Positions 6,808 through 46,855 of a DNA stretch of 64,000 nt are shown piece by piece. The first letter of the stretch is position 1, and each line of letters begins with the position of its first letter. The notes under the pieces are model-generated. The model was not told the origin of the DNA, searched no databases, and worked only from the letters and a program-made list of their open reading frames with translations. A program made the translations under genes and the position numbers. This DNA comes from a virus, in the IMG/VR virus record IMGVR_UViG_3300045988_130225, positions 35,703-99,702 of that record, one strand, 5' to 3'.

Positions 6808-9800
6808 TTAATCTCTCCTTCCACCCATCTGTAATGCTCTGTTTTTTAAATTCTTTAATTCGTCAATAAATGATTGTGCGTTGGTAACATTTGGTAATGT
6901 AAGATTTTCAAAAGCGTAGTTATAAATAGGTGCAGACTGTCCACCCATTTTTCCTACAATACTGTTTAACCATTGTGTAGGTGAGAATTTACCAAGTTGC
7001 ATAAGATTCTCAGTCAAATGATTAGGAATAATACCGTCACCCTCATTAGACCTTGAACCAAGAACTCTTAATTCTCGACCTTTTTCACCAACCATAGATA
7101 AACCATAACCTTTTGTTGTACCGTTTGCATAAGCCCCCGGGCCATGTGAAGTATCATCTTCATACCAGTTATCACCACCAGACCCATGAGAATATTCAGG
7201 TTCTTTATCAGTCCAATGTTCTTCTGGGTCAAGTTCGTCACCAAATTCTTCATCATCATCATCATCGTAACTTTTATATCTTGTCTTAAGTGTACTCATT
7301 ATTTCATTATATCTATCTACATAATCTTGAAGATTACCAAGACGTTTCTCCCAGTTTTCACCCTCTAAACTAATGCCTAATACTTGTTCAGCAAGAAGTT
7401 TATTCTGTTCAGTTGTATAATTATCTGTAACATTTCCCCATTCATCTTTATACTTTTGCCAATACTTTATCTGTTCTTCAACTGAATTAATTGTAGCGTC
7501 ACGAATATCTTCTAATCGTTTTATCTCTTTCTTGGTGTCTTGCTCTTTCTTATATTGTGTAAGAGCAGTTTTAGCTTCGTCTACAGCAGATTGGTCTGTT
7601 TCGTAAACAAAACCTTGTCCCTCTCTATATATTCTTACTTTCTTTTGTTGTGCTTTTGCTAAAGCATCTAACTTTTCTTGTAGTTCAATTTCGTCATTTG
7701 TTGCATCGTTCTTTTCGTTTATTTTGTCAATCTCAGCATCGTACTGGTCTTGAATAGCTTGTTTTCTTTCGTTAAGTGCATCAATTTCTTTTTGCGCTAA
7801 TGAAGCAACATAACTAAACGCTGTTTCCAGATTAGATTGTTGTTCCTCATACCAAGCCTTTTCTTCCTCCCACTCTTCTTTACGTGCTTTCTTACGCTTT
7901 TCTGCTTCTTGCTCTGCTTTTCTTGTATTTTCTTCTTCAAGTTTATTACGTCCAGAATAAATCTCTTCTTCAATTTTCCAACGTTGCTCTGCGTATTTTT
8001 CTTCATTACTATAGAACTCTTTCATTAATTCTTCAAGTTCGTCATAGTATTCCTGTTCAGAAATCATATCCATAGCAAGTTGATGTTTTAAGAGGTTATA
8101 ACGCTCAGTATAAGCCGCATCATGGGCTTTTGTCATACCGTCTAAGGCTTTCTCATGATACTTGTTATATTCATCCTCATACCCCTCTTTATCTTTGTAG
8201 TATTTATTTGTAAGTTCTTCAAGCTGTTCATAATACCATTTATCTGTAGCGGCATTATCTTTCATTGAAGCCTTTTGTTTATCTAAAGTAGCAAGTTCTT
8301 TTTCAAATGCTTCTTTATATGCTTTAGCGTCTGCTTTTGCTTGTTTTTCTGCATCTGAGGTTGAGGATTTCTTAGAACCACCGCCACCTTTACCAGATTT
8401 GCCACCAGATGTAGACGGTTTAAACTGTAATCCTTTTCTCAATTCCTCTAAAAGTTTTTGATTTTGTTGATTACGGTAAGCTTGAACTTGTGCGTCAAAT
8501 CCTTCTGAGTAAGATTGAACACCAACACCGCTACTGCCTGTTCTAGCTTTTGGTGCGGCACCAGATACAGCATCTAAACTAGAAGCAAATTGTAAAATTC
8601 CTTGCGCTCCTTGTGCAAATTGGTTACCTGTTGTTATAGCCGTATTACCAATCGTTGTTAAATAAGGATTTGCTTGTGAACTTGCTGTTCCCACTTGTTG
8701 AATAGAAGTTCCTAAATTATCAGAACCTTGTTTCCCTATTTCTGCGTTTGTGCCAACTTTTTGCTCACTTTCACTAAAAGTATCTAATCCTTGTGAACTA
8801 GAAATAGCAGAAATCCCACTTTCAGTAAAGCTTTGTGCCATTGACATTAAAGAAGCATCGTTAACAACTAATTGACCATTTACCATTTGTAAAGAATTAA
8901 GATATTCTGGGTTTAAAGATAATAAATCAGCCATTGTATCTATTGTAACACTACCAGTTTTATTGTATTCGTCTGCTACTTCATGTAAAGTATCATAAGC
9001 GTCTTGAACACCTTTTAATTCTGATGTAAGACTTTTAATAGCTTCTTCAAATTCTTCTGTTTGAGAAGCGGCTTCACCTGCATCTTCACCATATTGATTT
9101 ACGCCATCAGCGGCTTCTTTTGCTTTATCACCATTATCTTGTAATTCAATTCCTAATGCTTTTGCAAAATCTGGAAATTGCGTAGCAACAACTTCATCTA
9201 ATGCTTCTTTAAATAACGGAATCTGCGAATTATTTTTAAGCAACGCATTGTATACACTTTCAAAAGAACTAAGACTATCATATTGAGTATTTATAAAAGA
9301 TTGCGTCTTTTTATCAACATCAACCGTTGCATCAGCGGCTTCTCTTGTAAGTGTAGCAGTTTTATTATATTTATCCTCTAATTCAACAAGAGTATTACTT
9401 AAGAACGCTAAAGTTTGCTGATGTAATTTTGTTTGATTATCTTCTTGTTGCATTGCGGTAATAGTAGTGTTTAAATCCGCTATTAATTCTTTATAACCAC
9501 CTGCCGCTTCATAAACGCCTTCACCCAAACTCTTTGTATATTTATTATAAAACGCCTTAAAAGATTCACTGGATTCAGTATCAGAGGTAAATTTCAAAGG
9601 AATATAAAACGAAGTTCTATTTAACATATCCTGTGTTGCTTTTTGCGCTTTCTGAATTTCAGCTTGATTTCTGTTCAAAAAATCTTGTGATTTTTCAGCA
9701 TTTTCTTTACTAAGTAAATCTAAACCTTCTGCTCTTGTTCCGTTCAAATTTGATAGTGCTTCTTCTTCAACACCATAAGCCTTAGCAAGTTTGGAAATTG

Positions 9801-23714: not shown

Positions 23715-24217
23715 AATTTCACCCCTTTGATACCCCATTTGCTAATATTAAAATCGAACTTATCAAAATCTGTAGGCATTTGTTGTGCTTTATCATTTAA
23801 TGTATTTACTTGTCCCATAATGATATTGTATTTTCTAAATAATCTATACATATCGGAAGTTACGTTTCTATCCCTATGAGCAATAGCAATGTCTACTACT
23901 TTATTCATAATTTCATAAACTTCGCTAAACTCTTTTAAGACCGTAGAAAACATATCAGATAAATTAGAATAATTTCTATCATCTTTATGGACTTCTGGGC
24001 GAATAGAAGATAAATTATAATTATCTTTAATTTCACTCACAACATCTGCAAGCAAAGGCATAGTATGACTTATGTTAAGATGTACAATTTCTCCTGCGTT
24101 TGGCATAGAAAAATCGTTTAGCATAACAGAAGCTACTCTATCCAAAGTTGCGTTCAAATCAAAAAACGCTCCATACAGCACGTCTAACGCTTCACTTGTT
24201 TCTTCATGTATCAACAA
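23711..24217 (-). CDS. hypothetical protein (TTG start)
   Basis: 168 aa ORF; GGTGAG RBS. Confidence 0.45.
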   Translation of the reverse strand: MLIHEETSEALDVLYGAFFDLNATLDRVASVMLNDFSMPNAGEIVHLNISHTMPLLADVVSEIKDNYNLSSIRPEVHKDDRNYSNLSDMFSTVLKEFSEVYEIMNKVVDIAIAHRDRNVTSDMYRLFRKYNIIMGQVNTLNDKAQQMPTDFDKFDFNISKWGIKGVKL

Positions 24218-24234
24218 ATCAACTCACCGTTACT

Positions 24235-25705
24235 GAAAACTTATAAAAAGTTATAAACTTTTATGTTTCATTCCTACTTCAACGAGTATGCTTTCATAAT
24301 TATTTCTAATATACTACTCACAAGTTCTTGCACTCTCCATAGGCGTAAATTCCGAACTAACGTATTCGTACATATTTATATCAACCTGAAATGCTATGAT
24401 ACAGATTGATTTAAAACATTTTCTCCATATCTTTTAAGATTTAAAGATGCTTGATAATCTCTGTCAATCATATTACCGCAATCACATTTATAAACACGGT
24501 CTGATAATTTTAAATCTTTTTTAATTTTGCCACAACAACTGCATAATTTAGAACTAGGAAAAAACCTATCAGCAACTATTACAGTAATATTATTCCATTT
24601 ACTTTTATATTTAATTTGCCGTCTAAACTCATAAAATCCTTGCTGTTGTATAGCTTTGGATAAATGTTTATTTTTCATCATACCTTTTACATTCAAATCT
24701 TCAATACAAATAAAACTTGGTTCTCGCTTTATAATTTCAGAAGTTATTTGATGTAAATAATTCTTGCGAATATTTGTTAGTTTATGATTTACTTTTAAAA
24801 GTTTCTTTTCGCTTTTTACAATGTTACTTGTTTTACAATAACTATCTCCTTTCTTGTTTTTTAAATATTCCCTAGAAACAGAACGCTGTAACCTACGTTT
24901 TTTCTTCTCTAACTGTTTTATCTTTTGTGATTTATTTATATTTTGATATTTATAATTATTAGAACAAATAGCTAAATCTTTAATTCCTAAATCAATACCA
25001 ATTCCTTCTTTATTAGGAATATTTACACTATCTGGATATTCTACACCAACTGTAATCCACCAATTTAATCCGTCAAATTTAATTCTAGGATTATAATATT
25101 TACAATCTGTCGGTATACGATTACGTTCAGCAAGTCGTATCCAGTTTAATTTCTGCTTATTTTTCTTTTTAGATTTTGTAAATCCTTCAACTTTTACATG
25201 AGTTTCAGAAAATTGAATTTTTACACTATCTTGGTAAAAGGAGGGTGTAGATTTTTTTCTGTTTTTAAATTTAGGAAAGTTTGTCAAGCCTTTAAAAAAT
25301 TTCTTATAAGCATCACAAGCATCTTTAATAGCTTGTTTTGTGACATTGTTAGAAATATCATTTAACCAGACATATTTCTGTGTATGTTTCATTTTTGTAA
25401 ATTCTTTTCGCAAATCCGTATCAGATAGAAATTTACCACCATTTTTATAATTTTCTTGTTCTCTTGCTAATGCCCAGTTATAAGCAAATCGAGCAGTGTA
25501 AGCATACTGAAGCAATTTTGTCTTTTGTTTATTGTTTGGAATTAACATTACTCGAATCGTTTTTAACACATTGTTCGCCACCTTCATCTATAAGTTCTTT
25601 TACAAATTTCTTTGCTTTGTCTTATAAAACTTATAAAAATCAACATTCAATTATAACTTTTTATAAGTTTATAATCATTGTTATTCACCTCTTTCAACCA
25701 GTGTT
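24235..25705 (-). mobile_element. TnpB-only IS200/IS605-superfamily element (element 1)
   Basis: tnpB flanked by a perfect 20 bp inverted repeat (24237-24256 versus the reverse complement of 25651-25670) and by 13 nt direct repeats ACTCAC(C/T)GTTACT (24222-24234, 25706-25718). Confidence 0.6.
24394..25587 (-). CDS. tnpB: TnpB RNA-guided nuclease
   Basis: 397 aa; RuvC motifs GIDLGIKDLA / ICIEDLNVKGM / DRDYQASLNL and a CxxC..CxC zinc ribbon. Confidence 0.9.
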   Translation of the reverse strand: MKVANNVLKTIRVMLIPNNKQKTKLLQYAYTARFAYNWALAREQENYKNGGKFLSDTDLRKEFTKMKHTQKYVWLNDISNNVTKQAIKDACDAYKKFFKGLTNFPKFKNRKKSTPSFYQDSVKIQFSETHVKVEGFTKSKKKNKQKLNWIRLAERNRIPTDCKYYNPRIKFDGLNWWITVGVEYPDSVNIPNKEGIGIDLGIKDLAICSNNYKYQNINKSQKIKQLEKKKRRLQRSVSREYLKNKKGDSYCKTSNIVKSEKKLLKVNHKLTNIRKNYLHQITSEIIKREPSFICIEDLNVKGMMKNKHLSKAIQQQGFYEFRRQIKYKSKWNNITVIVADRFFPSSKLCSCCGKIKKDLKLSDRVYKCDCGNMIDRDYQASLNLKRYGENVLNQSVS

Positions 25706-25728
25706 ACTCACTGTTACTAATCAGTACC

Positions 25729-27342
25729 CTATTGATTTCGTGACCGTTCAGCAGAATCAGAAATGGCTTCTTCACTTTGAGGTCTACCAACTTGTCCACT
25801 ACCCCCACTCATGGTATGAATAGACAAAAGTTGTGATAAATTGTCTAAGAAATCACTATTATGTGCTTCTTCCAACATTCTCTCAAAATCCATAGGTTTA
25901 TATCCAAAAGCAGACGCATAAGCACTTGAATTAAGTACCATACCCACATCTGCTAATTTCATAATAGCATCTTGCTTCTTTTTACGCCAAAATGGTTGTG
26001 TACATCCATCAAACGTAAACTTAAACTTAAATTGTTTAGTTTTCTGATTAGCATAGAACTCTAAGAAATTGTTAAATTGAGTATATAATTTAGCCACAAT
26101 CTCATAATCAGCAGTAATAGCCGCTTGAAGTTCTTCGTTTGACATTCTATCCGTAGCGTAAATTAAACGGCTTGCAGAACTACCATATCCCACTGTATCT
26201 TTAGCGGCAGTAGTAGCCATATCTGTGTTTTTATCCTCAAACTGTTTAAATTCAACTTCTTCAAGAGGTAAAGCAATAGAACGAACAATTTTATCTTGTG
26301 TCATAGAGTTTTTCAATCCACTAGCGACAAGTTTCATTAATCGTCCTAATGTACTTGGTTTGACTGCAAACCTATCAGCAACCTCACCAGATTTTGCAGA
26401 ATCTTGCATTTTCATCTCACCGTAAAGTATACCAAAAGCACTGGCAATATCTTTATTTTTTTGTAACTTTGCAATCTCTGTGTTATTGAAAACATTCTTT
26501 AAATACGGAGCCATAAAAGGAACACTTGCAAAATTACTTGTGTCAAACTTGAAAGCCCAGAAACCATCATTAGGACTTGTCTGGTGATAAAGAGTAAAAG
26601 TACCATCACGATTACTTAAGCCGTTTGACGGAATATAATCTTTAAAATCTTTACCGTCCCATACTTCTCTAAGGTATTTTTTAAACACAGGAGCATAGCA
26701 ATCTATATCTACACCTTGCATACCAATAAAGTACATCATGTCGAAGTCGAATAATAAGCCACTTTCAAAATAACCAGTTAAGATACATCTATCTTGTGGC
26801 AATGTTTGTAGAGCATATTTAGGATTGTTTCTATCCATGTTTGTTCTAAAACTTGTATAGTGTACTTCATGTCTTAAAAGCTGTTTTACAACTTTTTTAA
26901 ATTCACCTTTGTAATCAAAATTATCAAGGAATTTATAAATTCTTGCTTTATCAGCTTTATAATTATCAGACTTATAATCTTCTTTCTTAGCGTTTTTACA
27001 AGTAATTTGCAAATCAAAAGAAAGGAGATTTGTGTAGTATTCAATAGTTCTGTTATAAATCATATCGAATACTTCCATAAACTCACTATAAGCCTGTAAG
27101 TTTGTAGCACCAGTTTTATACTCGCTTAAAGCCTTTATAATATCGTCATATTTTGGAATCTTAGCATTGTTGTTAAGATTAACCAAATTCTGATTACTTA
27201 ACCATGGACTATATACTCCAAAACTATCCAATCCATATAAACTCTGAGCAAAACTTACTACATCATAAACCTGTTGTTCTGATAACATAACAGGTTCTTC
27301 TACTTTAGGAGTTAATCTTTGACTATTTTTCGTAGTTCTCAT
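25729..27342 (-). CDS. portal protein
   Basis: 537 aa ORF immediately downstream of terL; size and position are typical. Confidence 0.6.
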   Translation of the reverse strand: MRTTKNSQRLTPKVEEPVMLSEQQVYDVVSFAQSLYGLDSFGVYSPWLSNQNLVNLNNNAKIPKYDDIIKALSEYKTGATNLQAYSEFMEVFDMIYNRTIEYYTNLLSFDLQITCKNAKKEDYKSDNYKADKARIYKFLDNFDYKGEFKKVVKQLLRHEVHYTSFRTNMDRNNPKYALQTLPQDRCILTGYFESGLLFDFDMMYFIGMQGVDIDCYAPVFKKYLREVWDGKDFKDYIPSNGLSNRDGTFTLYHQTSPNDGFWAFKFDTSNFASVPFMAPYLKNVFNNTEIAKLQKNKDIASAFGILYGEMKMQDSAKSGEVADRFAVKPSTLGRLMKLVASGLKNSMTQDKIVRSIALPLEEVEFKQFEDKNTDMATTAAKDTVGYGSSASRLIYATDRMSNEELQAAITADYEIVAKLYTQFNNFLEFYANQKTKQFKFKFTFDGCTQPFWRKKKQDAIMKLADVGMVLNSSAYASAFGYKPMDFERMLEEAHNSDFLDNLSQLLSIHTMSGGSGQVGRPQSEEAISDSAERSRNQ

Positions 27343-27412: not shown

Positions 27413-29293
27413 TTAGAACACAAGTTGGTCTAACTCATCTAAATTGGTATCTCTTTGTTCATCTACAGCATACTTATCACCTATTAAGGTTGCAATATGG
27501 TTTCCGTAACTCAAAGCTACAATTTTATCCTTTGTCGCACTATTTCTGTTAGGTTCTGATAATTTCAAAATACCGTTATTCCATGTTTGAGTTAAACTAA
27601 TAGCTTCTGACATCATTAATGCAGTTTGAACATATGGCAACTTAATATTAACTTTTTCCTCAGAACTCATAGTAAGATAATTTACATCTTCTTCAAGTTC
27701 TGTTTCAATCGTTAATTCATCTACCAAAAATTCAATCATTTCATTATCTAGGGCTTTCTTTAAATCAAGCCACATTAAACTATTTCGTTCACTTGTACCA
27801 ACAATAGGTATGATACATGGTATAGCTTCTGCATCAACCGTTTTGCCTTTAAGTTCTTGAATTTTAGCGTCTGGAACTATCTGTAAAGCAGATTCATAAC
27901 AAACTGTAAATCCATGTGGATTCCAATTACTTCGTGATGGGTGTTCAAAAGGTTTAGATAACTCTGTATAATAAAGAGTACCACCGCTTCTTTCGTCCAT
28001 TACGATATAATCTGCTTGGTAATCCCAAAAGAACTCTCTAATCTTTTGTTGAAATCCCTCACTATCACTAGCAGGGTGCGTTCCAATATATTCTACTTTT
28101 CGTCTTGTCTTACCATCTTTCATAATGACAGACATACAACCAATAACACTATTATCGTTATCGTTTGTATTGCTGTTTACAAAAGCATAATCAATGAAAA
28201 GTAAACGTTTTTCAAATTCACCTTTAGGTCTGTTACCTAAATCAGTTGACATAAATATATCCATAGGCGTAGGTGGTTTATAGGCTTTTTTTATCACTTG
28301 ATTCTTTCTGAAATCTTCAAGTAAGAAGAAAGCACCCTCTGTTTCACCATACATTTCATTCAAATCTTCTGTTACAAAGTCAATATCTGAATCAAATTCT
28401 TTATCATGCCAGTAATCAGCCCATGTTTTAAGGTTAAATAAAATTGCAAGAAAAATATTAGAAGCAAAGAAATTATATGTATGGTCTTTTCGTATCATAC
28501 TTTGTTGAACAACAAGTTTAAATTCTTGCCAGAAACTTTCACTTCTAAATCTTGCAGATGTAATACTTATAGTTTTACATTGCTCAACCCAACGTGGCAA
28601 TGTTTTTCCATTACTATCTTTATATTCGTCCAACAACGAAAATTTAGATTGTCTTGGGTGAGCCATTTTAGAGAATACAGAATCTATTAAACTTTTCTTC
28701 AAAAGTCTACGTTCTTCATATATAAGCATAGTTGCCCTAGAACCTCTACTGCTGTTCAGACAAGGTAAAACCGTTATCATACTGCCATTTATTTTGCTCA
28801 AATCTACTTCTACACAATCATTATTATACCTAAAAACTATATCGCCATTCTCATAATAATATTGTAAAACTGGTGAAAGTTTCTTGCAAAGTTCATCTTC
28901 TATTTTCTTTTTTACTAGCTTTGTAGCCTGTGGAATAGTAGAAGATGTAATAACAACTTCTGCAAACGGGTATAAACATGAGTGTATGACAGCGAGAAGT
29001 CCTGCAATCATTGACTTAGAAGCACCTCTCGAACAAATCGCATACCAATATTGGCTAATTCCTGCTAAATAAACCATAACATGCTGAAACGGATATAATT
29101 TAATCTTTAATCTTCTTTCAGCATATATATTCCAATTACGTCTATAAAATGTTGTCCATTCCTTAATATTTTTCTTTCTTTGTTCCCACGGTAATCTTCT
29201 GTCAGTCTTTTTCTTTTCTTCTTGTTTTTTCTTTCTTTTTTCCACAAGACTAATAATATCTATATCTTTGTTTTCCTCTAACATAGACATCAC
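27413..29293 (-). CDS. terL: terminase large subunit
   Basis: 626 aa; Walker A-like CSRGASKS near the N-terminus, C-terminal nuclease-like acidic motifs. Confidence 0.8.
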   Translation of the reverse strand: MMSMLEENKDIDIISLVEKRKKKQEEKKKTDRRLPWEQRKKNIKEWTTFYRRNWNIYAERRLKIKLYPFQHVMVYLAGISQYWYAICSRGASKSMIAGLLAVIHSCLYPFAEVVITSSTIPQATKLVKKKIEDELCKKLSPVLQYYYENGDIVFRYNNDCVEVDLSKINGSMITVLPCLNSSRGSRATMLIYEERRLLKKSLIDSVFSKMAHPRQSKFSLLDEYKDSNGKTLPRWVEQCKTISITSARFRSESFWQEFKLVVQQSMIRKDHTYNFFASNIFLAILFNLKTWADYWHDKEFDSDIDFVTEDLNEMYGETEGAFFLLEDFRKNQVIKKAYKPPTPMDIFMSTDLGNRPKGEFEKRLLFIDYAFVNSNTNDNDNSVIGCMSVIMKDGKTRRKVEYIGTHPASDSEGFQQKIREFFWDYQADYIVMDERSGGTLYYTELSKPFEHPSRSNWNPHGFTVCYESALQIVPDAKIQELKGKTVDAEAIPCIIPIVGTSERNSLMWLDLKKALDNEMIEFLVDELTIETELEEDVNYLTMSSEEKVNIKLPYVQTALMMSEAISLTQTWNNGILKLSEPNRNSATKDKIVALSYGNHIATLIGDKYAVDEQRDTNLDELDQLVF

Positions 29294-29319
29294 CTAATCT
29301 TTCTTTCGTGGAATTAAAG

Positions 29320-29442
29320 GATACTCCTTTGTGCCTGCTCTGAACCTCCCACGACTAAAGTCGCAGGGTTCTCGGTCAATAACTCTATTGAGTTAAGTAT
29401 CACCAAGCTAACCCCGTAGTTCCTACGGTTTTTATATATCAT
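29320..29442 (-). ncRNA. omega-RNA / intron 3' segment of element 2 (scaffold 29340-29442 plus about 20 nt flanking guide)
   Basis: Structured tail after the tnpB stop: hairpins CCGTAGGAACTACGG and CCCTGCGAC-TTTA-GTCGTGGG, ending GGGAGGTTCAG like element 3. Confidence 0.45.
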
Positions 29443-30555
29443 TTAAACATTTAAAATTCTTAAACCCTCATTCAAAATATTAATAGAAGCATTATCATCT
29501 CTATTCAATTTTGAACCGCAGTTAGAACAAATCCAGTATCTAATCTCAACAGGCTTTTTACCACCATTAACACCACAACAATGACAAATTTGTGAAGAAG
29601 GAAAATATCTATTAATTACAGATAATATTTTTCCATACCAAATAGATTTATAAGTCAACATTCTACGAAATTCAGACCAAGAAACATCATTCACATGTTT
29701 ATTACGAACACTGGAATCTGTTTCCCTCATAGACTGTACATCTAAATCTTCAATACAAATAATATCATATTGTTTAACAATATTAGTAGTCAATTTCTGT
29801 AAAAAGTCTTTACGTTGATTAGATATATGTTTTTGTAAATTTGCGACTTTAATTCTTGCTTTATTCCAATTAGAACCACCGATTGCTTTTCTCGATAATT
29901 CTCTTTGTAACTTAGCAAGTTTCTTTTCTGACTTTTCATAAAATCTAGGATTTTTAATCTTAATACCGTCAGATAAGATTGCAAAATCTACAATCCCTAA
30001 ATCTATTCCAACATTTTTATTTGTTTTTGGATATTGTGGAAATTCTATATCAGTACAGCATAATGAACAATAGTAATGTCCGTTTGGTTCTTGTGATATA
30101 GTAGCGTTAAGTATTCTTCCTTGCGGAATTTGCTTATCACGAACTTTTACAAAACCTAATTTTGGAAGCCTGATATGCTTACTTTCAAATCTTATATTAT
30201 TAGTAGTACAACTTGTAGTATAAGATTGATGTCTATTTTTCTTAGATTTAAAATTAGGAAAACCAGTTTGCTTTTTAAAAAGTTTTTGATATGCATTATC
30301 TAAATTTTTCAAAGTTTTCTGTAAAGCATCTTTATCTGGTTCTTTAAGCCATTCATTTTCTTTCTTTAACTGAGTAAGCATTTTACTTGTGTCGTAATAG
30401 TTTAAAGTTTTCTTATTTTCTTTATACTCAGTTATTCTTTTGTCTAAGAAATAATTATAAACATATCTACAGCAACCAAAAGTTTTCTGTATTAATTCTT
30501 GCTGTTTCTTATTCGGATAAATTCTATACTTAAAAGCCTTTTCCAACAATATCAC
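29443..30555 (-). CDS. tnpB: TnpB RNA-guided nuclease
   Basis: 370 aa; VGIDLGIVDFA / IICIEDLDVQSM / NRDDNASINIL and zinc ribbon CHCCG..CSNCG. Confidence 0.9.
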   Translation of the reverse strand: MILLEKAFKYRIYPNKKQQELIQKTFGCCRYVYNYFLDKRITEYKENKKTLNYYDTSKMLTQLKKENEWLKEPDKDALQKTLKNLDNAYQKLFKKQTGFPNFKSKKNRHQSYTTSCTTNNIRFESKHIRLPKLGFVKVRDKQIPQGRILNATISQEPNGHYYCSLCCTDIEFPQYPKTNKNVGIDLGIVDFAILSDGIKIKNPRFYEKSEKKLAKLQRELSRKAIGGSNWNKARIKVANLQKHISNQRKDFLQKLTTNIVKQYDIICIEDLDVQSMRETDSSVRNKHVNDVSWSEFRRMLTYKSIWYGKILSVINRYFPSSQICHCCGVNGGKKPVEIRYWICSNCGSKLNRDDNASINILNEGLRILNV

Positions 30556-30572
30556 TTCCTTTCATAAATTAA

Positions 30573-30601
30573 CTTATAACATATTTATATATAAATGTCA
30601 A
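30573..30601 (-). promoter_or_regulatory. sigma70-type promoter inside the IStron, upstream of tnpB
   Basis: TTGACA (reverse complement of 30596-30601), 17 nt spacer, TATAAG (reverse complement of 30573-30578). Confidence 0.45.
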
Positions 30602-30639
30602 GTTAAATTATGAAAAGAATTACTTTAGTTTAAATAATA

Positions 30640-31111
30640 TATAAAAACCGTAAGTTACTTTAGTTACGTTTTGAGATTGTCGTTCACATAGGTTCGCTAC
30701 TCCTATGCAGTTCTCCAATGAACTTCTTGTACTTTCATACAAGCACAGACTATATCTTATCCCTCACCATTACGTGTTAGGGTCTACCCACTTCCACACG
30801 CTTGTGTGTACTTCCCTCAAGAGGAATAGTCGTTGAAGTTTTCCTTTCGGACTTACCTGCTAATTGCCTATTTTTCAGTGTTTAGGATTTAACCATGCAC
30901 CATTCATTCAATTTTTTCTACTTTCGTCACATTCACGCTTATACCCTTTAAGGTATTACGTTGTAGTTTGAATGACTTTAAGGTTTCCTAGCAATTCAAG
31001 TAGTATTGGATGCTAAAAGCATCGCTACGTGCAAGTTTCCCTACACGCTAACTATTTCGTAAAACGTTCGCTTACTCACGACTAAAGTTATGAATATGCG
31101 TTCACGATTTA
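30640..31111 (-). ncRNA. group I intron ribozyme portion
   Basis: GC-enriched and ORF-free; GGGATAAGATATAGTC core signature (reverse complement of 30748-30763), P8-like CTTGTATGAAAGTACAAG, and GACCCTAACACG resembling the Tetrahymena P7/P3 strand. Confidence 0.6.
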
Positions 31112-31956
31112 ATCAAATTCTTTACAGCAGAAACTACATACTTAAACCAGTCAGCTTCAATATTACAGAAATCCTTATATTTTTCCAAATCTTCACATTC
31201 ACAAGGTTCAGTGTTTTCGATTTCCCAAATCTGATGTTCAAGCATTTGTTCAGTTAAAGTCTTTTCTTTCTTCTGAGTAAAGTTATCAAGTTTTAAAGTT
31301 TTCATTAATTTTAAAACCATATCTTGTTCTTCTTTACCAGAATTACCCATGTCCACTTCTTTTTTATATCTTAATTCAGCAATACAAAGTTTACGATACA
31401 AACTCTCTTGTGCAGGTGTCAACTTAATATCATCAGTGTAGAATCCCCATCTATACTCAAGATAGGCATAATCTTCATCTGATTGCTCTCCCCAATCCAG
31501 AATTAAATCTTGTATATTTAATTTACGTTGTGTTTCTTCGTCATTGGAAGTCATAGAACTTCTATCTACATCTGTTTGTCCAAAACAATCCCATTTATCT
31601 GATTTTTTCTTTAAAGCTAAAAAAGTTACATAATACTGTCCCCAGTAGTTATATGTACTAGACAAAGTACCTTCTTCTTTTTCTTTTTCAACTTTTTCCA
31701 TCAGACCATCATATACTTTTTGTATAAACGGTATTCCTATCTCAGCACATGTTGACCATAAAGCTAATTTAATATCTCCATATTTACTGTAATAGTTTTG
31801 ATAAATCGTTTTACAACAAGTGGTACAATAAGGAACTACTTTATTTGCATGGTTTGGATTGTCAGATTTATAAAATTTCTTAATATCATAAGGTCTGTTG
31901 CAACGAATACAAAATGATTCTGTTATGGGTCTTTCTTTTCTTATAATGGTTGCCAT
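31102..31956 (-). CDS. terminase small-subunit-position protein (unspliced form)
   Basis: ORF 31102..31992; ATG at 31956 after a GAGGGAA RBS; N-terminal Cys4 zinc-ribbon motif; located upstream of terL. Confidence 0.4.
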   Translation of the reverse strand: MATIIRKERPITESFCIRCNRPYDIKKFYKSDNPNHANKVVPYCTTCCKTIYQNYYSKYGDIKLALWSTCAEIGIPFIQKVYDGLMEKVEKEKEEGTLSSTYNYWGQYYVTFLALKKKSDKWDCFGQTDVDRSSMTSNDEETQRKLNIQDLILDWGEQSDEDYAYLEYRWGFYTDDIKLTPAQESLYRKLCIAELRYKKEVDMGNSGKEEQDMVLKLMKTLKLDNFTQKKEKTLTEQMLEHQIWEIENTEPCECEDLEKYKDFCNIEADWFKYVVSAVKNLIKS

Positions 31957-31998
31957 AACATTCCCTCGTTTCCAACAAAAAAAGAAAGACAATATTAA

Positions 31999-33934: not shown

Positions 33935-36430
33935 TCAACCATTTTCATGTAATTTCTTTAAATTTTCTATTATTAAATCACCGACAACAGCCCAACAAAA
34001 ATATTTATTCTTATTCTGTCCATAACATAAGTCAAGCATAATATTAACAAGTCTATCTTTGTTTGGACAAATTTCTTCTGCTCTTGCTCTAAATTCATGC
34101 TGTATGCTCATAACTCTTGTATTTGCTTCTTCCGTACTTAAATTTTTCTCAATCACAATTTTCTTAAACTGTTTAATACGTTTAATGTATTCTTTTTCAA
34201 GATTTTCAATATCTTCTCTTGTTTTAGGTGAACTTCTTTGAATAGGAGATTTAAGAAATTCATAATTAAAACCCTTGGATTTAAGTTCTACCACTCTGCC
34301 ATCAAATTCACTTTCCACATATCGGCAAATTCGGTTCATAGTAGAACCAGAAATGTTTACTGGCATTTTTATATCGTACCATTCTAAAAACTTTTGCTGT
34401 TCTTCTGTAAGATTTTTCTTTTCTTTTAATTCATTTACTTTACAACCATAAAGCATAACACATTTAAGGTCACAATTTTTTATATAACTATCATAATCTT
34501 TTTTTAAAGAAGAATAATTATAAATAAAATAATAAGGCTTTTTATCTGTTACGATTGCTTTATCTAAAGGTGTGGTACACAGCTTTGAAACGTACCAATA
34601 CTTAGGCATTTCCTTACAAATAACTCCCTTCAGTTTGTCCAGAGTTGACTGTTGATATAACTGTCCACACAAAATACGTTTTGATAATTCTTTATATTCA
34701 TTTGTATTTTCATTAAATAAAGCTAATTTATCTATTTGTGCCGATACTCTATTAGTGATTGTTCCAACTTCTGAGCCTAAGCCCATACGGTTACTTTTTC
34801 TAATATCGTTTCTTTTAACAATTCTTTTCTCTCCTTTACGTTGTACACAATCAATAGCATTTGTATATTTATAAGCACTTAAAAGTACGTTATTATTAGT
34901 AGAATATATAGAATCACTATCAAAATCGCTCCCGTTCAATGCCATACATATAGTGTCCCAATCATTTAGCACCATCATTGTATTAGAATATTTATACCAT
35001 TCTTGGCATTTTTTATCGTTATTTACTTTCATTTTCCTAATATTATTATGTGAAGTCATAGGAGAACGAAAACAAACTACCTCATTCACACCTTTATCTA
35101 TCCAATATTGTGAATATATTTCGTTAGCTTTAAGTAAACCAGTAACCTCTAATCCATATATACTCTGCATTAAAGCATAAGAATCACCCATAACTATCTG
35201 ATAATTCCCTTCAACTTTCAGTTTACCTATCTTAGCTTGATTAATCTTTTTCTTAATCATTTTATTGATTCTGTCAATCACATAAGGGTCATTCATCATT
35301 CTCTCATCTAAATATAAGGCTTGTGCATAATCTTTGGTTTTAGTTTTTTCACCAACACCCAAAAATTCTTTTGTTTTCTGGTAATCACCACCAAACGCCA
35401 TTTTCAGCCAATCAACAGTAGGTTTACATAATTCTACAATCTGTTCATCTGTCAATTCATAACTTTGCAAATACTGATAATTTGTTTCTCTTGTATCTTC
35501 CAACTTTTTAGGTGTTACTTTTGTAGCAGAAAACCTATAACCATTTTCATAATAACATTTGTGGTATTCTTCCCAACTAGAATAATTATCCCATAACTTA
35601 AGACTGGATTCAGTAATAATCATATCCACATCTCGAATATCTCTTTCAGTACCCCAAATATCTTTTACTTTATATCCCTTACCAACTTCCTCAGCAAATT
35701 TTATAATCTCAAAGACATTCAACATACCTTTCATATAAGCATTTCTTAAACAAATACCACTTGGCAAATAATCAAGACCTAATTTATCAGCAACTCTTTG
35801 CATATATTCTGGTGTACAAAGATTCATGCCGTCACTGCCGTTGTTTTCTAACTCTACACCAAATTTTTCCTCAACGATAGGTTCATCTGTTTCACTATCA
35901 TCAATCCTAACCACATCACCCTTAAATTTAGTGATACAATCTCGTACAACCAATACAGAGCGTGGTTCTGGTATCTCAACGGACGCTGAATAGGTCAGAG
36001 CAATATAAGCCTCTAATTTAGCCGGTATAGCCTTGTAATCTTTCTTCCTACCACAATCAGTCCTTTTAATTAACTCTGGTAAAATATCTTCTCTCACAAA
36101 CAATAAAGTATTATTTTTAAGACCACCAGTAGTTCCAACAACCCACAAAAACCTTTTACCATTTAAAATCACACCAGTTTTAGACGTAACTTTGTCATAG
36201 TCACTCATTGAGGAAATCTCCACAGCAAGCATTAAATCCGTCATATCTTGCTTGTATTGTTTGTTACCTATAATTGTAATTAAATCTATCAGTCGAAATG
36301 CTTGTGAATCAAATAAGTCAATCAATTCATCTAAACGAACCGCCAACTCTTTGGATAAAGTAATTTGCCAGTTGTTTATTCGGAAACGTTCAGATGAAAC
36401 TTTGAAAATCTTTCTACGTTTATTTTGCAT
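33935..36430 (-). CDS. YonO / RdRP-like single-subunit (two-barrel) RNA polymerase candidate
   Basis: 831 aa; VVCFRSPMTSHNNIRKMKV followed by NGSDFDSDS mirrors the R.P...gD and GxDxDGD motifs of cellular RdRPs and SPbeta YonO. Confidence 0.6.
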   Translation of the reverse strand: MQNKRRKIFKVSSERFRINNWQITLSKELAVRLDELIDLFDSQAFRLIDLITIIGNKQYKQDMTDLMLAVEISSMSDYDKVTSKTGVILNGKRFLWVVGTTGGLKNNTLLFVREDILPELIKRTDCGRKKDYKAIPAKLEAYIALTYSASVEIPEPRSVLVVRDCITKFKGDVVRIDDSETDEPIVEEKFGVELENNGSDGMNLCTPEYMQRVADKLGLDYLPSGICLRNAYMKGMLNVFEIIKFAEEVGKGYKVKDIWGTERDIRDVDMIITESSLKLWDNYSSWEEYHKCYYENGYRFSATKVTPKKLEDTRETNYQYLQSYELTDEQIVELCKPTVDWLKMAFGGDYQKTKEFLGVGEKTKTKDYAQALYLDERMMNDPYVIDRINKMIKKKINQAKIGKLKVEGNYQIVMGDSYALMQSIYGLEVTGLLKANEIYSQYWIDKGVNEVVCFRSPMTSHNNIRKMKVNNDKKCQEWYKYSNTMMVLNDWDTICMALNGSDFDSDSIYSTNNNVLLSAYKYTNAIDCVQRKGEKRIVKRNDIRKSNRMGLGSEVGTITNRVSAQIDKLALFNENTNEYKELSKRILCGQLYQQSTLDKLKGVICKEMPKYWYVSKLCTTPLDKAIVTDKKPYYFIYNYSSLKKDYDSYIKNCDLKCVMLYGCKVNELKEKKNLTEEQQKFLEWYDIKMPVNISGSTMNRICRYVESEFDGRVVELKSKGFNYEFLKSPIQRSSPKTREDIENLEKEYIKRIKQFKKIVIEKNLSTEEANTRVMSIQHEFRARAEEICPNKDRLVNIMLDLCYGQNKNKYFCWAVVGDLIIENLKKLHENG

Positions 36431-43287: not shown

Positions 43288-44017
43288 ATAGCAAACAAGA
43301 GAACAAGTAAATGAGTAAACGTAATTAATTATTTAGTCGAAAGTTTACAGAGTTTGACAGTTGCTAAAATAACTAAATTTATAGGTTTGGCATGAGGAAG
43401 AGTTATTGTGTAACAAGGGCCGTCGAATGTAATTAAAATCTACGGAGAACAAACTCCGGTAAAAGCCCTGCGTATGAAAGTGGTGTATATCTTTTTTGTT
43501 AGGTTCAGCTTTTGCCTAAATCGTGTGTAGACGAAGAAAAGATATATAAAAGCAAAAATAGGTTTTTTCTCTGAATCATGTTAAATCGGCGGTTGGTTGG
43601 TTATTAAGTGTAAGCGCAAACACGTAATAACGCAACATGATGTGTCACTACTCACAACCGCTTTTGGTATGCTATCCACACATACCAAAGCCTCCTAATT
43701 CGCAATACAAAAGATTAATTTTCTCCTTTTTGACTAGTAACTTTTCTGGTAGATGGACGTGAATAGTCAAAGGTGGCAACTTGTTTTATCGAGGAATAAG
43801 TTGCCACATACATAGTAATTGAAAACTGAATATTTGAGATTACTAAAAAATCCGTTAATAATGAAAATGCTAAGTATTCATAGATACGATAAATATTTAG
43901 CTTAAAATGTTATTAAAAACCTACTCTGTAGAGATATAAACCATGGCAGTGAGAACGTATCTAGTCTGTGATTACAGAATATTATCCTTTGGTAGCGGTT
44001 GAGGGGATATTAATTAA
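43288..44017 (+). ncRNA. candidate large structured ncRNA (~730 nt) abutting tRNA-Gln
   Basis: No ORF; many 7-11 bp helices (ATATATCTTTT/AAAAGATATAT, GCGGTTG/CAACCGC, GTTATTA/TAATAAC, TTTGGTATG/CATACCAAA, GTGGCAACTT/AAGTTGCCAC); GC above the local background. Confidence 0.5.
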
Positions 44018-44089
44018 AGGGCATTAGCCAAGCGGAAAGGCAAAACACTTTGACTGTTTCATGCGTAGGTCCGAATCCTACATGCCCTG
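44018..44089 (+). tRNA. tRNA-Gln (UUG)
   Basis: Manual fold: 7 bp acceptor AGGGCAT/ATGCCCT, D-arm GCCAAGCGGAAAGGC, anticodon stem AAACA/TGTTT with loop CTTTGAC, T-arm GTAGG-TCCGAAT-CCTAC. Confidence 0.85.
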
Positions 44090-44119
44090 TTTATAAAAAT
44101 AAATGTTTGGTGATTAAAA

Positions 44120-44868
44120 ATGAATACTAATATTAAATATTATGAACGTAAAGTTCCAATAGTTGATACTTATTCTGTTAAAGAATTAGAAGAAATTGTG
44201 AAAAATTCATATTCTTTTAAAGAAGTAATTTTAAAATTGGGGTATAAAACGCAGAATGGAAGTAATATAAAAACAGTAAGAAACAGATTAGAAAACTTAA
44301 ACATTGATTATAGTCATTTTGCTTCTACTATGCAAATAAAAAGAACCTATGAAAATGTATTTTGTAAAAATAGTACAACTACACAGCATGTTTTAAGACG
44401 GTGGTATAAGAAAATAAGTAATGATAATATTTGTACTATTTGCAGACAGGATAAAATCTGGAATAATAAAGAATTGACTATGATTTTAGACCACATTGAT
44501 GGCAACAATCATAACAATGTAACTTCAAATCTACGGTGGATTTGTCCTAATTGCAACAGTCAGTTGCCTACATTTGCAGGCAGAAATTTAAGATTAGAAA
44601 TGTAAAGTTAAAACATACAAGAGAAAAGAAAATTTGTCCTATTTGCAACAAAAATATCCTTTCTAACAGTGATAATAAAATGTGTATTGATTGCTACAAA
44701 AATTATCAATCCAGAAATATTCCTGCTAAAGAAGAGTTAGAAAAATTAATTTATAATACGCCTTTTGTAAAAATTGGTAAAAAATACGGGGTATCAGATA
44801 ACGCTGTAAGAAATTGGTGTAAGAAATACGGCTTACCTTATAAATATAATGATTTACACAAAAGATAA
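44120..44868 (+). pseudogene. HNH homing-endonuclease-like gene split into two frames (44120..44605 and 44551..44868)
   Basis: N-part carries DHIDGNNHNNVTSNLRWICPNCN (HNH); C-part carries a zinc ribbon plus the GKKYGVSDNAVRNWCKKYGL HTH typical of the same protein family. Confidence 0.6.
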
Positions 44869-44973
44869 TTAATTTATTATGTTTAAGTCTTGTTGGAAAG
44901 AATTAGTAGATATTATAGGTAATCTATTAAACAATGCAAGTTCAACTCTTGCACCTAAATTTTTATCATAAAC

Positions 44974-45047
44974 GGAACAATATTTCAACTGGTTAGAAAG
45001 TTCGGCTCATAACCGAAAAGTTATAGGTTCGAGTCCTATTTGTTCCA
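44974..45047 (+). tRNA. tRNA-Met (CAU; could be an Ile2-type)
   Basis: Manual fold: acceptor GGAACAA/TTGTTCC, D-arm TTTC..GAAA, anticodon stem TTCGG/CCGAA with loop CTCATAA, T-arm ATAGG-TTCGAGT-CCTAT. Confidence 0.85.
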
Positions 45048-45149
45048 TTAGAAGAATAATCAATATTGCACACCATCACCTTATAATTATAATGACGTTC
45101 CCCCTAAAATAACGTTTATTACTGCAATATTAATTGTTCTTCACAATAC

Positions 45150-45210
45150 AAAACAGTAATACAGTATAACAACTCCCACCACCAATGTTTATGCTGTATT
45201 ACTGTTTTTT
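45150..45210 (+). terminator. long hairpin with T-run (tRNA operon terminator or IS left-end structure)
   Basis: 15 bp stem AAAACAGTAATACAG/CTGTATTACTGTTTT, then TT. Confidence 0.45.
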
Positions 45211-45211
45211 A

Positions 45212-46467
45212 TAGAACAGTAAGCCAAAAACCCCCATTAGCTTTAGCTGATGGGAAGAATAGTGGAGAACAATTAACTGAGAGTGAGGTGATTATAGATG
45301 TTGGTAGCATACAAATACAGATTGTATCCGAATAAAGAACAACAAGAATATTTTGCTAAATGTTTTGGGTGTGTACGATTTATCTATAATCGTATGCTTT
45401 CAGATAAGATTGACTATTATAAAGAAACAAAGAAAAAGCTGAATAATACACCTGCTCAGTACAAGAAAAAGTTTGAGTGGCTAAAAGAAGTAGATTCACT
45501 TGCATTAGCAAATGCTCAAATGAATTTGCAGACAGCCTATAACAATTTTTTCAAACGTCCAGAAGTGGGTTTTCCAAAATTCAAAAGCAAGAAGAATAAT
45601 CACTTCTCTTATACTACAAATAATCAGGGAGGAAACATTTATGTGACAGACCGATACATAAAACTCCCTAAGATTGGACTTGTTAGAGTTCGGAAACATA
45701 GAGATTTTGAAGGATTAATTAAGTCTGTTACTATTTCTAAAAGTCCGTCTGGTAAATACTTTGTTTCAGTATTAGTAGACCAAAAAGATAAAGAAAAATT
45801 AATTCCAAACAATAACCAAATTGGAATTGATTTAGGTATTAAAGAATTTTGTATTACTTCTGATGAAGAGATGATTCAAAATCCAAAGTTTCTTAGAAAG
45901 TCTGAAAAGAAATTAAGAAAATTACAAAAGGATTTATCTCGTTGTCAAAAAGAAAGTAAAAATAGAGAAAAATGCAGAATTAAAGTCGCAAGACAACATG
46001 AAAAGATTGCAAATCAACGTAAAGATTTTCTACATAAGTTATCTAGGCGATTTATTGATGAAAACCAAATCATTGCATTAGAAACTTTGAAAATTAAAAA
46101 TATGATGAGTAATCATAAATTAGCAAAATCAATAGCAGATGTATCATGGTCTGAATTTGTAAGACAATTAGAGTATAAGGCTCAGTGGTATGGTAGAGAA
46201 ATCGTAAGGATTGATACTTGGTATCCATCAAGTCAGATATGCTCTAATTGTGGTCACAAAGACAGAAGAAAGCCATTATCAGTAAGAGAATGGATCTGTC
46301 CTAATTGTGGTACACATCATGAAAGGGATATAAATGCAGCTATAAATATTCTTAAAGAAGGTTTGAGAATTAAAACGGCAGGAACTGTCGAGATAGTCTA
46401 AGTAAACTTGTGCGGTTACGCATATTGATTAGAAAATCCAATGAGTTTTAACTCATGGGTAGTTCAG
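45212..46467 (+). mobile_element. TnpB-only IS605-type element (element 3); left boundary uncertain
   Basis: Similar subterminal hairpins at both ends (CCCATTAGC-TTTA-GCTGATGGG at 45232-45253; CCAATGAG-TTTTAA-CTCATGGG before 46459); right end GGGTAGTTCAG parallels element 2. Confidence 0.55.
45298..46401 (+). CDS. tnpB: TnpB RNA-guided nuclease
   Basis: 367 aa; [11 protein letters not shown] / [12 protein letters not shown] / [11 protein letters not shown] and zinc ribbon CSNCG..CPNCG. Confidence 0.9.
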
Positions 46468-46487
46468 AGGTAAGTTAATGAGTAGAT
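46402..46487 (+). ncRNA. omega-RNA 3' scaffold plus guide of element 3 (scaffold probably starts inside the tnpB 3' end)
   Basis: Hairpin CCAATGAG/CTCATGGG then TAGTTCAG, followed by flanking sequence AGGTAAGTTAATGAGTAGAT. Confidence 0.4.
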
Positions 46488-46513
46488 GTAGAGGTAAGTT
46501 AATGAGTAGATGT
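46466..46513 (+). repeat. perfect 24 nt tandem duplication at the element 3 right junction
   Basis: AGAGGTAAGTTAATGAGTAGATGT at 46466-46489 and 46490-46513; each copy carries an RBS and ATG. Confidence 0.95.
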
Positions 46514-46855
46514 AATTGTCAGCATTGTGATGCTTATATCAACATTCCAATAAACTGGTTCACAATGTATTTCTATGAGGACTTAACAAGATGTTGGATT
46601 TTTTGGCATATGAAAATGAATCATGATTTTCAGAGTACAGAAGATAATTGGTTTACTTTTGTATTAAGATTTATTGGGTTAATGTTAAAATTTGATTTAG
46701 CTTGTGTGTTGATTTCAGTGAAGATTGTGCTGACACCATTTTTAATGTTGGATAAATTTTTATTCTTTGACGCTAGAAGAGATATGGATTTTGAATATTT
46801 GGATAGTGATGAAGTTGAGGAAGATGAAGATAAAAGTGAGGATAAGGAGAATTAA
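46478..46855 (+). CDS. hypothetical membrane-like protein with acidic tail (start 46478 or 46502)
   Basis: 125 aa ORF; two in-frame RBS+ATG copies created by the 24 nt duplication. Confidence 0.5.
   Translation: MSRCRGKLMSRCNCQHCDAYINIPINWFTMYFYEDLTRCWIFWHMKMNHDFQSTEDNWFTFVLRFIGLMLKFDLACVLISVKIVLTPFLMLDKFLFFDARRDMDFEYLDSDEVEEDEDKSEDKEN

Follow-up and report, generated by a model that had tools for sequence, protein, structure and literature searches.

The stretch analysed here, hereafter the window, comprises 64,000 nucleotides (64 kb) of the IMG/VR virus record IMGVR_UViG_3300045988_130225 (positions 35,703 to 99,702) and is related to the Enterocloster phages PMBT24 and CB457P1, with the same gene order and 76% DNA identity in the portal gene. 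The gene that precedes the one encoding the large terminase (terL) is interrupted, 46 nt upstream of its stop codon, by an element of 1,772 nt (31111-29340) in which a group I ribozyme, a spacer, the nuclease gene tnpB and a right end with the putative omega-RNA, the guide RNA of TnpB, follow one another on the minus strand. A first-pass annotation, made from the sequence alone, had taken this element for an IStron, that is, a group I intron joined to a tnpB transposon. The comparisons described below confirmed this identity, so that the earlier interpretation was essentially right, and the element is very probably a non-autonomous IStron of the IS200/IS605 type ("group A") resident in a phage genome, encoding TnpB and no TnpA. 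The features of the locus, in the direction of transcription, are the following.

31956-31112, minus strand: 5' exon of the interrupted gene; the predicted spliced protein has 296 amino acids from the ATG at 31956, an N-terminal CxxC..CxxC motif and no family match.
31116-31112, minus strand: TTGAT, target and transposon-associated motif (TAM), the final 5 nt of the 5' exon, with U31112 as the U at the splice site.
31107-31057, minus strand: covarying 7-bp stem of UCGUGAA (31107-31101) with UUUACGA (31063-31057), which encloses the left-end hairpin and stacks on P1.
31094-31075, minus strand: left-end subterminal hairpin TTCATAAC-TTTA-GTCGTGAG, the TnpA recognition structure, holding the first copy of ACTTTAGTCGTG.
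31054-31048, minus strand: internal guide sequence (IGS) 5'-UA(G31052)UUAG-3', which forms the 7-bp P1 with exon UUGAU plus U31111 and A31110.
31052-30726, minus strand: group I core from P2 to P9 according to the RF00028 alignment, including J8/7 (AAGAUAUAGUC) and P7.1/P7.2 (~30825-30789).
30725-30680, minus strand: predicted hairpins P9.1/P9.2, then GAACGA (30685-30680), placed by folding and by the position of this motif in PMC4227781.
30601-30573, minus strand: candidate internal promoter, TTGACA (30601-30596), N14, TGT and TATAAG (30578-30573), recognised by eye.
30555-29443, minus strand: tnpB, longest open reading frame (ORF) of 370 amino acids, with a probable start at TTG 30546 (MEKAFKY..) by homology with other copies.
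29430-29340, minus strand: 3' tail, the end of the putative omega-RNA scaffold and the right end, finishing in AGGUUCA-G29340, the terminal G and 3' splice site.
Within the tail, minus strand: hairpin 29428-29414, stem 29407-29402/29376-29371 around hairpin 29395-29380, and right-end hairpin 29367-29348.
29339-29320, minus strand: predicted omega-RNA guide, the first 20 nt of the 3' exon (AGCAGGCACAAAGGAGUAUC), by the architecture of ISDra2 and CdiIStron.
29339-29294, minus strand: 3' exon, encoding (I)AGTKEYPLIPRKKD, with the stop codon TAG at 29296-29294 and the terL Shine-Dalgarno sequence AGGTGA (29295-29290).
29293-27413, minus strand: terL, by synteny and homology with PMBT24 terL and by matches to PHROGs 15503, 26582 and 24618.

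Two collections of sequences, whose contigs are designated by L numbers, were compared with the window: 64 viral contigs obtained from IMG/VR by a scan for the right-end motif of the element, and alleles of the insertion site recovered from IMG/VR and metagenomes by protein-guided retrieval. As initially noted, the element starts right after TTGAT (31116-31112), which is the TAM of ISDra2 TnpB (PMC8612924) and, with ATTAT and TTTAT, one of the pentanucleotides immediately 3' of which group A IStrons insert (PMC4227781). Its 3' terminus reads ...GGGAGGTTCAG, as also recorded at first, with a last base at 29340 and the TCAG end of group A, and the tail between the tnpB ORF and this base measures 103 nt. 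Empty-site DNA reads ...AATTTGAT followed by [A/T]GC[A/G]GG... across the junction; TTGAT-element-AGCAGG in the window corresponds to TTGAT-[A/T]GC.GG in the empty alleles with an unchanged TAM (L070, L071, PMBT24 and CB457P1), with no target duplication, and 13 other empty alleles carry CTGAT at the insertion junction. An ambiguity of 1 nt, T at the 5' end or A at the 3' end, is settled by the terminal G and by the fact that these elements insert 3' of TTGAT. Since the empty alleles read through the junction, the insertion is exactly 31111-29340, without target duplication, and the terminal base G29340 (omega-G), whose position is set by the empty sites, directly precedes the exon. ORF A (tnpA) is optional in group A, and "ORF B only" copies are listed for CdISt1 (PMC4227781). 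The window copy is of this type, no tnpA having been detected in the element or elsewhere in the 64-kb window and no remnant of it in the ~125 nt between ribozyme and tnpB.

The ribozyme part (31111-30680, 432 nt) contains no open stretch longer than 38 codons and has a GC content of 39.1%, against 30.9% for the window, which agrees with the ORF-free, GC-enriched 5' part described in the first-pass annotation. The Rfam model Intron_gpI (RF00028) matched 31052-30726 on the minus strand over its full length (1-253 of 253) with 70.6 bits, the gathering threshold being 50, and an E-value of 2.4e-17, which bears out the proposed group I intron. This match appears solely when ~2.3 kb (29100-31400) is searched. 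Rfam scans of the whole window, at gathering and E-value thresholds alike, did not report Intron_gpI, and the one at gathering threshold gave only a RAGATH-18 RNA and two tRNAs. The whole-window misses were artefacts of the Infernal filters, which in their default form can miss group I introns in AT-rich phage windows. Other introns in this AT-rich window could be overlooked likewise; the sensitive searches covered 23800-26200, 29100-31400 and 43800-46800.

The alignment forms P8 from ACCCUAACAC...GGUGAGGG, with GACCCTAACACG as the 5' strand of this helix, and assigns CUUGUAUGAAAGUACAAG and CTTGTATGAAAGTACAAG to P9. The hairpin called P8-like in the earlier reading is thus P9. A 34-nt insert between the 5' strand of P7 and P3' is predicted to fold into two hairpins, P7.1/P7.2, and two more, P9.1 and P9.2, are predicted 3' of P9. 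On this model the ribozyme belongs to subclass IA2, the features of which have been reported for all IStrons, and in IStrons the IS part is joined after a GAACGA-type motif downstream of P9.2 (PMC4227781). The GAAC of this motif (30685-30682) could pair with the GUUC just before the terminal G, a sequence that the retrieval pattern had fixed at the right end of the compared copies.

P1 includes the wobble U31112-G31052 with pairs on either side, as described for group A, where the U-G wobble of P1 is flanked by pairs on both sides (PMC4227781). With G29340 as terminal base, this places a U at the end of the exon and a G at the end of the intron, as anticipated. The helix was found in 15 of the 15 distinct intron-bearing copies and is missing from the intron-less derivative L058. 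Over 12 distinct family members 100% of the P1 cells are paired, the target side, whether TTGAT or TTTAT, pairing with the IGS in every copy. TAM position -3 pairs with the IGS as GC in 7 copies, as GU in 3 and as UA in 2; copies that target TTTAT carry GUAAG in place of GUCAG, a compensatory change, and the family IGS is UAGUYAG, just 5' of P2. These alignments indicate that the IGS covaries with the target motif across the family.

The sequence ACTTTAGTCGTG, previously remarked near both ends with coordinates off by 1-2 nt, is indeed repeated there (31088-31077 and 29361-29350). It is not an intron signature: both copies belong to the left- and right-end subterminal hairpins of IS200/IS605 elements, the structures recognised by TnpA, and P1 uses a different guide, UAGUUAG (31054-31048). 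The family consensus is CTCGTGAC-TTTA-GTCRTGAG at the left end, 99% paired, and CCYRCGAC-TTTA-GTCRTGGG at the right end; the sole unpaired cell of the family lies in the left-end hairpin of the window (A31089 x C31080). A helix of 5-8 bp separates P1 from the left-end hairpin in 10 of 12 distinct copies, each building it from different sequences. An unconstrained minimum free energy fold of 31119-31046 (-18.8 kcal/mol) reproduces P1, this stem and the left-end hairpin nested within one another, and therefore the helix of the splice site, the TnpA hairpin and the TAM are all encoded in one stem-loop. Such dual coding at the 5' end means that a single sequence serves transposase, ribozyme and TAM together.

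A different guide, ACTTTAGTCG, was considered and rejected. In that arrangement UUUAGUCG (31085-31078) had first been read as pairing with UGAU/UAAA. However, UUUAGUCG is invariant even in TTTAT-targeting copies, where it would be mismatched, and its pairing would be knotted with the strongly covarying stem, whereas the guide located just 5' of P2 covaries with the TAM and fits cleanly into the nested fold.

Without splicing, the host ORF (31992-31102, minus strand) finishes ...AAG AAT TTG ATT AAA TCG TGA (..KNLIKS). Joining 31112 to 29339 leaves a frame that is open up to ..SAVKNLIAGTKEYPLIPRKKD and the stop codon, that is, ..SAVKNL-I-AGTKEYPLIPRKKD-TAG. Seventeen uninterrupted relatives finish ..NLIAGTKEYPLIP(R/K)K(K/R)D, exactly as in the predicted splice product. 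Among them, PMBT24 and CB457P1 have an uninterrupted gene of 302 amino acids directly upstream of terL, with the C-terminus ..SAVKNLIAGTKEYPLIPKKRD and the DNA ..AATTTGAT followed by TGCAGG.., and 15 metagenomic phage contigs match the predicted 296-residue product contiguously with 99-100% amino acid identity. The alignment with insert-free relatives thus agrees with the in-frame splice put forward initially, the predicted spliced C-terminus being by this comparison the native one, and sequence evidence suggests that the transcript is spliced in the phage.

The upstream protein of 309 amino acids has no Pfam or PHROG match, so the label "TerS-like" given to it before reflects gene position alone, upstream of terL. 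For terL itself, alignment with PMBT24 terL (VKEENNE..) makes ATG 29284 (MLEENKD..) the most likely start, and the Shine-Dalgarno sequence AGGTGA for this codon overlaps the TAG. The stop codon does abut GTG 29293, as had been pointed out, but this GTG is merely the longest-ORF start. The PHROGs matched by terL of the window are common to the terL-like protein of L003, which additionally matches the terminase family phrog_2. In CB457P1 (L002, ~4385-7836) the annotation splits terL into pieces around an "intron-associated endonuclease 1" (GIY-YIG, I-TevI-like), so that intron nucleases of two kinds, protein-guided and RNA-guided, reside in the packaging module of this phage group.

The tnpB ORF (30555-29443) is intact, as first reported, and its product contains the Pfam domains HTH_OrfB_IS605, OrfB_IS605 and Cas12f1-like_TNB and aligns over its full length with ISDra2 TnpB (8bf8/8exa; E ~3e-99). 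D185 is aligned to D191 and the E of ICIEDL to E278, both of which are essential in ISDra2 TnpB (PMC8612924), and the third acidic motif (NRDDNA) and the zinc finger (CxxC...CxxC) are conserved. Judged by these residues, the nuclease active site is intact and the protein would be expected to cleave. The four helices of the tail have 98.3% of their cells paired over 22 distinct sequences, with 9 pairs changed on both sides; in 0 of 500 shuffles were the observed values reached, and slid controls were 29-49% paired. By analogy with the architectures of ISDra2 (PMC8612924) and CdiIStron (10.1101/2023.11.20.567912), the guide would begin with the first base of the 3' exon. The tail (29305-29434, minus strand) also has a weak Rfam match to Ref70, an Enterococcus small RNA, with 24.9 bits and an E-value of 0.18, far below gathering, which hints that Ref70 may be an IS200/IS605 right-end or omega-RNA transcript.

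The candidate internal promoter of tnpB is a good match by eye and may be functional. A promoter and terminator consensus scan did not list it, because its -10 hexamer, TATAAG, ends in G; the total of matches in that scan, 10 as compared with 10.2 in shuffles, gave no support. In the occupied sibling L012/L074, 7 nt that include the -35 box (30602-30596; CTTGACA on the minus strand) are missing, and the copies of L082 and L083 keep 1,772 nt; the loss may be natural variation in the expression of tnpB and omega-RNA.

The closest kin of the element are the group A IStrons CdISt1/CdiIStron of Clostridioides difficile and CcISt1 of Clostridium (now Enterocloster) citroniae (Braun 2000; Tourasse 2014, PMC4227781; Zedaveinyte et al., 10.1101/2023.11.20.567912). 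Like these, and with every feature by which PMC4227781 defines group A, it has a 5' ribozyme assigned to IA2, an IS200/IS605 part with the corresponding type of ORF B after P9.2 at GAACGA, insertion 3' of TTGAT, a TCAG end and no target duplication. TnpB is kept and TnpA lost, the splice sites are the transposon ends, and the omega-RNA is placed in the 3' region of tnpB, with its guide starting from the 3' splice site; in size the element comes close to CcISt1 (1,772 nt compared with 1,779 bp). It differs from them in that its host is a ~95-kb phage of the Enterocloster PMBT24/CB457P1 type and not a bacterial chromosome, in that the window copy has no tnpA remnant and a damaged left-end hairpin, in its intron part, ~79% identical to the nearest database relative, and in population data that point to homing-like spread among phages.

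Three other systems invite comparison. ISDra2 (IS8301) of Deinococcus radiodurans (Karvelis 2021, PMC8612924) shares the TTGAT target and TAM, a TnpB with the same catalytic residues, subterminal hairpins at both ends and a guide taken from the DNA flanking the right end, but it has tnpA and no ribozyme, and for lack of the latter it cannot sit harmlessly in coding sequence. The group B, IS607-type IStrons (CbISt3 and CbISt4 of the C. botulinum phages c-st and D-1873; CboIStron) likewise combine ribozyme, TnpB and omega-RNA; with them IStrons had already been documented in phage genomes, and it was on them that the antagonism of splicing and guide RNA was demonstrated. Their serine-recombinase family, targets ending in GG, TGGG TAM, CGG element end, 5' exon ending in G and long AU-rich inverted-repeat stem are all absent here. 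With the homing-endonuclease group I introns of phages (T4 td/I-TevI and the GIY-YIG intron in CB457P1 terL) the element has in common flanking co-conversion and a presence/absence polymorphism, but its nuclease is guided by RNA (TnpB and omega-RNA) and owes its specificity to the flanking exon, not to recognition of a fixed site by a protein.

The right end is common to the 64 viral contigs, and the intron-bearing copies with both ends recovered occupy 13 distinct sites, all in frame inside ORFs. Among the interrupted ORFs are those of terL-like (L003, L048), portal (L020), head closure (L004), integrase (L033) and tape-measure-like proteins, and in the Clostridioides phage ES-S-0173-01 a copy interrupts a terL-like gene in frame. 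Autonomous copies with a Y1 TnpA of 136 amino acids are present in L032, L039, L025 and L052. Two contigs (L058 and L036) carry a derivative of 1,297 nt with the same left and right ends and tnpB and without ribozyme and IGS, which shows that intron-less and intron-bearing versions of one IS lineage coexist in phages.

At two insertion sites, related genomes include both occupied and empty alleles. At the site upstream of terL, 4 alleles are occupied (the window, L074, which is the same contig as L012, L082 and L083) and 15 are empty. Between the window and L012 there are 10 differences over the 1,772 nt of the element, 7 of them due to the single indel that removes the candidate -35 box, compared with 345 over 7,116 nt of flanks (binomial p ~1e-25), and a near-identical tract extends over ~28981-31980. 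The elements of L082 and L083 differ at 3-4 of 1,772 nt and ~1 kb upstream is identical, whereas terL differs by 28% at 250-750 nt downstream. Occupied alleles are thus near-identical across phage backgrounds that differ by 4-28%, divergence growing with distance from the element. The second site lies in an NlpC/P60-containing tail gene, which is occupied in L034, L043, L064 and L009 and empty in contigs among L088-L108. The elements of L009, L034 and L043 are identical (0 differences over 1,590 nt), and their flanks show 0-2 differences per 100 nt beside the element and ~30 per 100 nt at 300-400 nt. This pattern is homing-like, and of the kind expected from homing with co-conversion, a young occupied allele being found in old and diverse backgrounds.

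The sequences that the predicted guide would meet were also compared. All 4 occupied alleles upstream of terL have TTGAT and C at guide position 7. Of the 15 empty ones, 13 have CTGAT and 2 have TTGAT; T at position 7 is found in 15 of 15, and within the first 16 nt 7 have one mismatch and 8 have five. Taking TTGAT+AGCAGGCAC as the perfect target, L070 has TTGAT+AGCAGGTAC, L068 has CTGAT+AGCAGGTAC and L071 is a five-mismatch allele; all the changes at this target are synonymous. A search of the viral contigs for the exact empty-site pattern AAGAATTTGATNGCAGGCACAAAGGAG found no match, because every empty allele has T instead of C at guide position 7. The empty allele of L068 and the window are isogenic over ~5.3 kb (-1800 to +3500) bar 11 sites, all of which fall within -186 to +6 of the insertion point and include TTGAT->CTGAT and guide position 7. 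At the second site, where at least 5 alleles are occupied, 11 of 16 empty ones, of the type of L088, L090 and L091, have TTGAT and a target perfect over 20 nt, and 5 have TTGAC and one seed mismatch.

To account for these observations we propose that the transcript has two fates. In the first, it would fold as an IA2 group I ribozyme, with P1 formed by exon UUGAU and the guide UAGUUAG; guanosine would attack after U31112, G29340 would set the 3' splice site, and with the exons joined to ..NL-I-AGTKEYPLIPRKKD the phage would keep its full-length protein. In the second, TnpB encoded by the element would bind the 3' end of the same transcript as omega-RNA, with a guide of ~16-20 nt provided by the start of the 3' exon, and the complex would cut a co-infecting, insert-free related phage bearing TTGAT and the matching sequence (predicted target TTGAT + AGCAGGCACAAAGGAG), whereupon repair with the occupied genome as template would insert a copy of the element (intron homing). 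Since the splice site sits between scaffold and guide, each fate would exclude the other. A further-reaching possibility, slightly less likely than not, is that TnpB-only group A IStrons act in gut phage populations as RNA-guided homing introns, in effect gene drives, the element being copied along with several hundred bases of its flanks without a transposase. The linked synonymous changes in TAM and seed (CTGAT and T7 here, TTGAC and T6 at the second site) might then be resistance alleles selected by the drive, and the cut might also serve as a weapon against competitors too diverged to repair.

Several points weigh against the two-fate explanation. P10 pairs poorly with the 3' exon, which opens with A opposite A31053, and some empty alleles have T in place of the A that directly follows the element. 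With its left-end hairpin damaged and no tnpA in the window, classical transposition of the window copy is doubtful. Both splicing and omega-RNA production in the phage are deduced from sequence. These phages are highly mosaic throughout, which confounds the co-conversion signal, and ordinary recombination around a vertically inherited insert could give a similar pattern; TnpB cleavage, rather than such recombination, may have driven the spread. In L024, L037 and L056 (TTTAT site, guide AAAAAGTATTACGAAGAACA) the pattern is even reversed, the elements differing by 4.5-10% and the downstream flanks by 0-3 differences per 500 nt, for which replacement of IStron variants, recombination between copies or counts inflated by indels are possible reasons. 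None of the 15 empty alleles upstream of terL has a perfect target, and present-day homing into the sampled alleles may therefore be inefficient; moreover, the complete association of target changes with emptiness could be mere linkage within the co-converted tract. As to selected TAM-escape alleles, we set them aside as a finding, given that 11 of 16 empty alleles at the second site are still perfect targets and that 1-3 changes per 21 nt are within background divergence. Selected resistance alleles are only a possibility.

A doubtful, though serious, alternative is that the element is a true IStron whose nuclease arm is irrelevant in the phage: a single insertion would be tolerated through splicing, and the near-identical tract would come from ordinary recombination between phages or from a hitch-hiking sweep. 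The pervasive mosaicism suits it, blocks of 25-50% divergence switching on and off among empty alleles too, as do the lack of a perfect target in the sampled empty alleles upstream of terL and the 11 of 16 at the second site that are perfect targets and yet empty. However, TnpB and omega-RNA are intact and have been kept with compensatory changes over dozens of phage copies, and ORF B is never the part lost (PMC4227781). Identical elements moreover occupy the same site with flanks that diverge by up to ~30% within 400 nt, and tracts of low divergence are centred on the element in three independent comparisons. It is much less probable that the same-site copies arose by repeated transposition, with TnpA supplied in trans by the host or another element. 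Autonomous copies with a Y1 TnpA do exist in the four contigs named above, and transposition must found new sites, as the family occupies many different TTGAT and TTTAT sites; but TnpA needs only the pentanucleotide, which makes repeated use of the same TTGAT in a ~95-kb genome improbable, transposition does not carry flanking markers and yet the adjacent flanks are co-inherited, and the window copy combines the only mismatched left-end hairpin of the family with the lack of tnpA. Least credible of all is a plain insertion of the ISDra2 kind, which would cut the upstream gene short at ..NLIKS and bear a vestigial, non-splicing likeness to group I. In its favour, P10 is weak, the whole-window gathering-threshold scan was silent on an intron, and splicing is not needed for terL, which with its ribosome-binding site lies downstream of the element. 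Against it, the ribozyme match is full-length and above threshold with all core helices and the IA2 peripheral hairpins foldable, P1 is maintained and covaries with the TAM, the 15 C-terminal residues that splicing alone can restore are conserved even in PMBT24 (portal region ~76% DNA identity), the intergenic tnpB elements of the window lack introns whereas the intragenic one has an intron, and in vivo splicing at precisely these boundaries has been shown for the C. difficile relatives (10.1101/2023.11.20.567912).

That the 3' splice site overlaps the omega-RNA guide, with the conflict that this entails, has already been published (10.1101/2023.11.20.567912; PMC13521648); what the first-pass annotation had put forward as its consequence is therefore established IStron biology and not new. 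Likewise, with IStrons and the trade-off between splicing and guide RNA established, the element itself is not a discovery. A survey of 2014 knew phage IStrons only of the IS607 type, in two C. botulinum phages (PMC4227781), a review of 2026 held homing by TnpB-only IStrons to be implied but "awaiting experimental validation" (PMC13565253), and in the literature searched we found no description of group A IStrons in phage populations. What the present analysis adds is comparative evidence for homing and a 5' stem-loop with dual coding. IStrons of the IS200/IS605 type are common in phage structural and packaging genes, and the alleles described provide natural support, at the level of sequence comparison, for IStron homing. 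The 11 empty alleles of the second site with perfect TAM and target, together with the candidate resistant alleles, make up a natural matched set of occupied and empty phages for testing it.

The window contains two other tnpB elements, both intergenic and without an intron, which fits the idea that the ribozyme permits residence in coding sequence. One is a TnpB-only element of the IS200/IS605 type at ~45213-46467 (plus strand), with a tnpB at ~45299-46371 whose product is 47.5% identical to TnpB of the IStron. It is situated just 3' of a tRNA (44974-45047) and of a terminator-like hairpin ending TTTTTTAT, its right end probably being ...CTCATGGGTAGTTCAG, with boundaries drawn by analogy; a sensitive search of 43800-46800 found no group I intron in it. 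Directly after this right end, a unit of 24 nt, AGAGGTAAGTTAATGAGTAGATGT, occurs twice in tandem (46466-46513, plus strand). It consists of the last two bases of the element and the predicted 22-nt guide region, and its duplication could be a footprint of repair or cleavage.

The third tnpB (25563-24409, minus strand), whose product is 29% identical to TnpB of the IStron, belongs to an element at ~24230-25690 between the portal stop codon and the next gene. The RAGATH-18 RNA (24343-24271, 70.6 bits) lies on its 3' side, ~65 nt from where the tnpB homology stops. Guide RNAs derived from RAGATH-18 have been described for IS607 TnpBs (PMC11061315), and a RAGATH-18 RNA beside tnpB was therefore dropped as a new finding and the element taken as one of known type. 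It is polymorphic between sibling phages, the whole 1.5-kb segment being absent from the sibling contig L012. Finally, an ORF of 831 amino acids at 33935-36430 (minus strand) is syntenic with an 831-amino-acid gene of PMBT24 annotated as "RNA-dependent RNA polymerase", an odd annotation for a tailed phage with double-stranded DNA.

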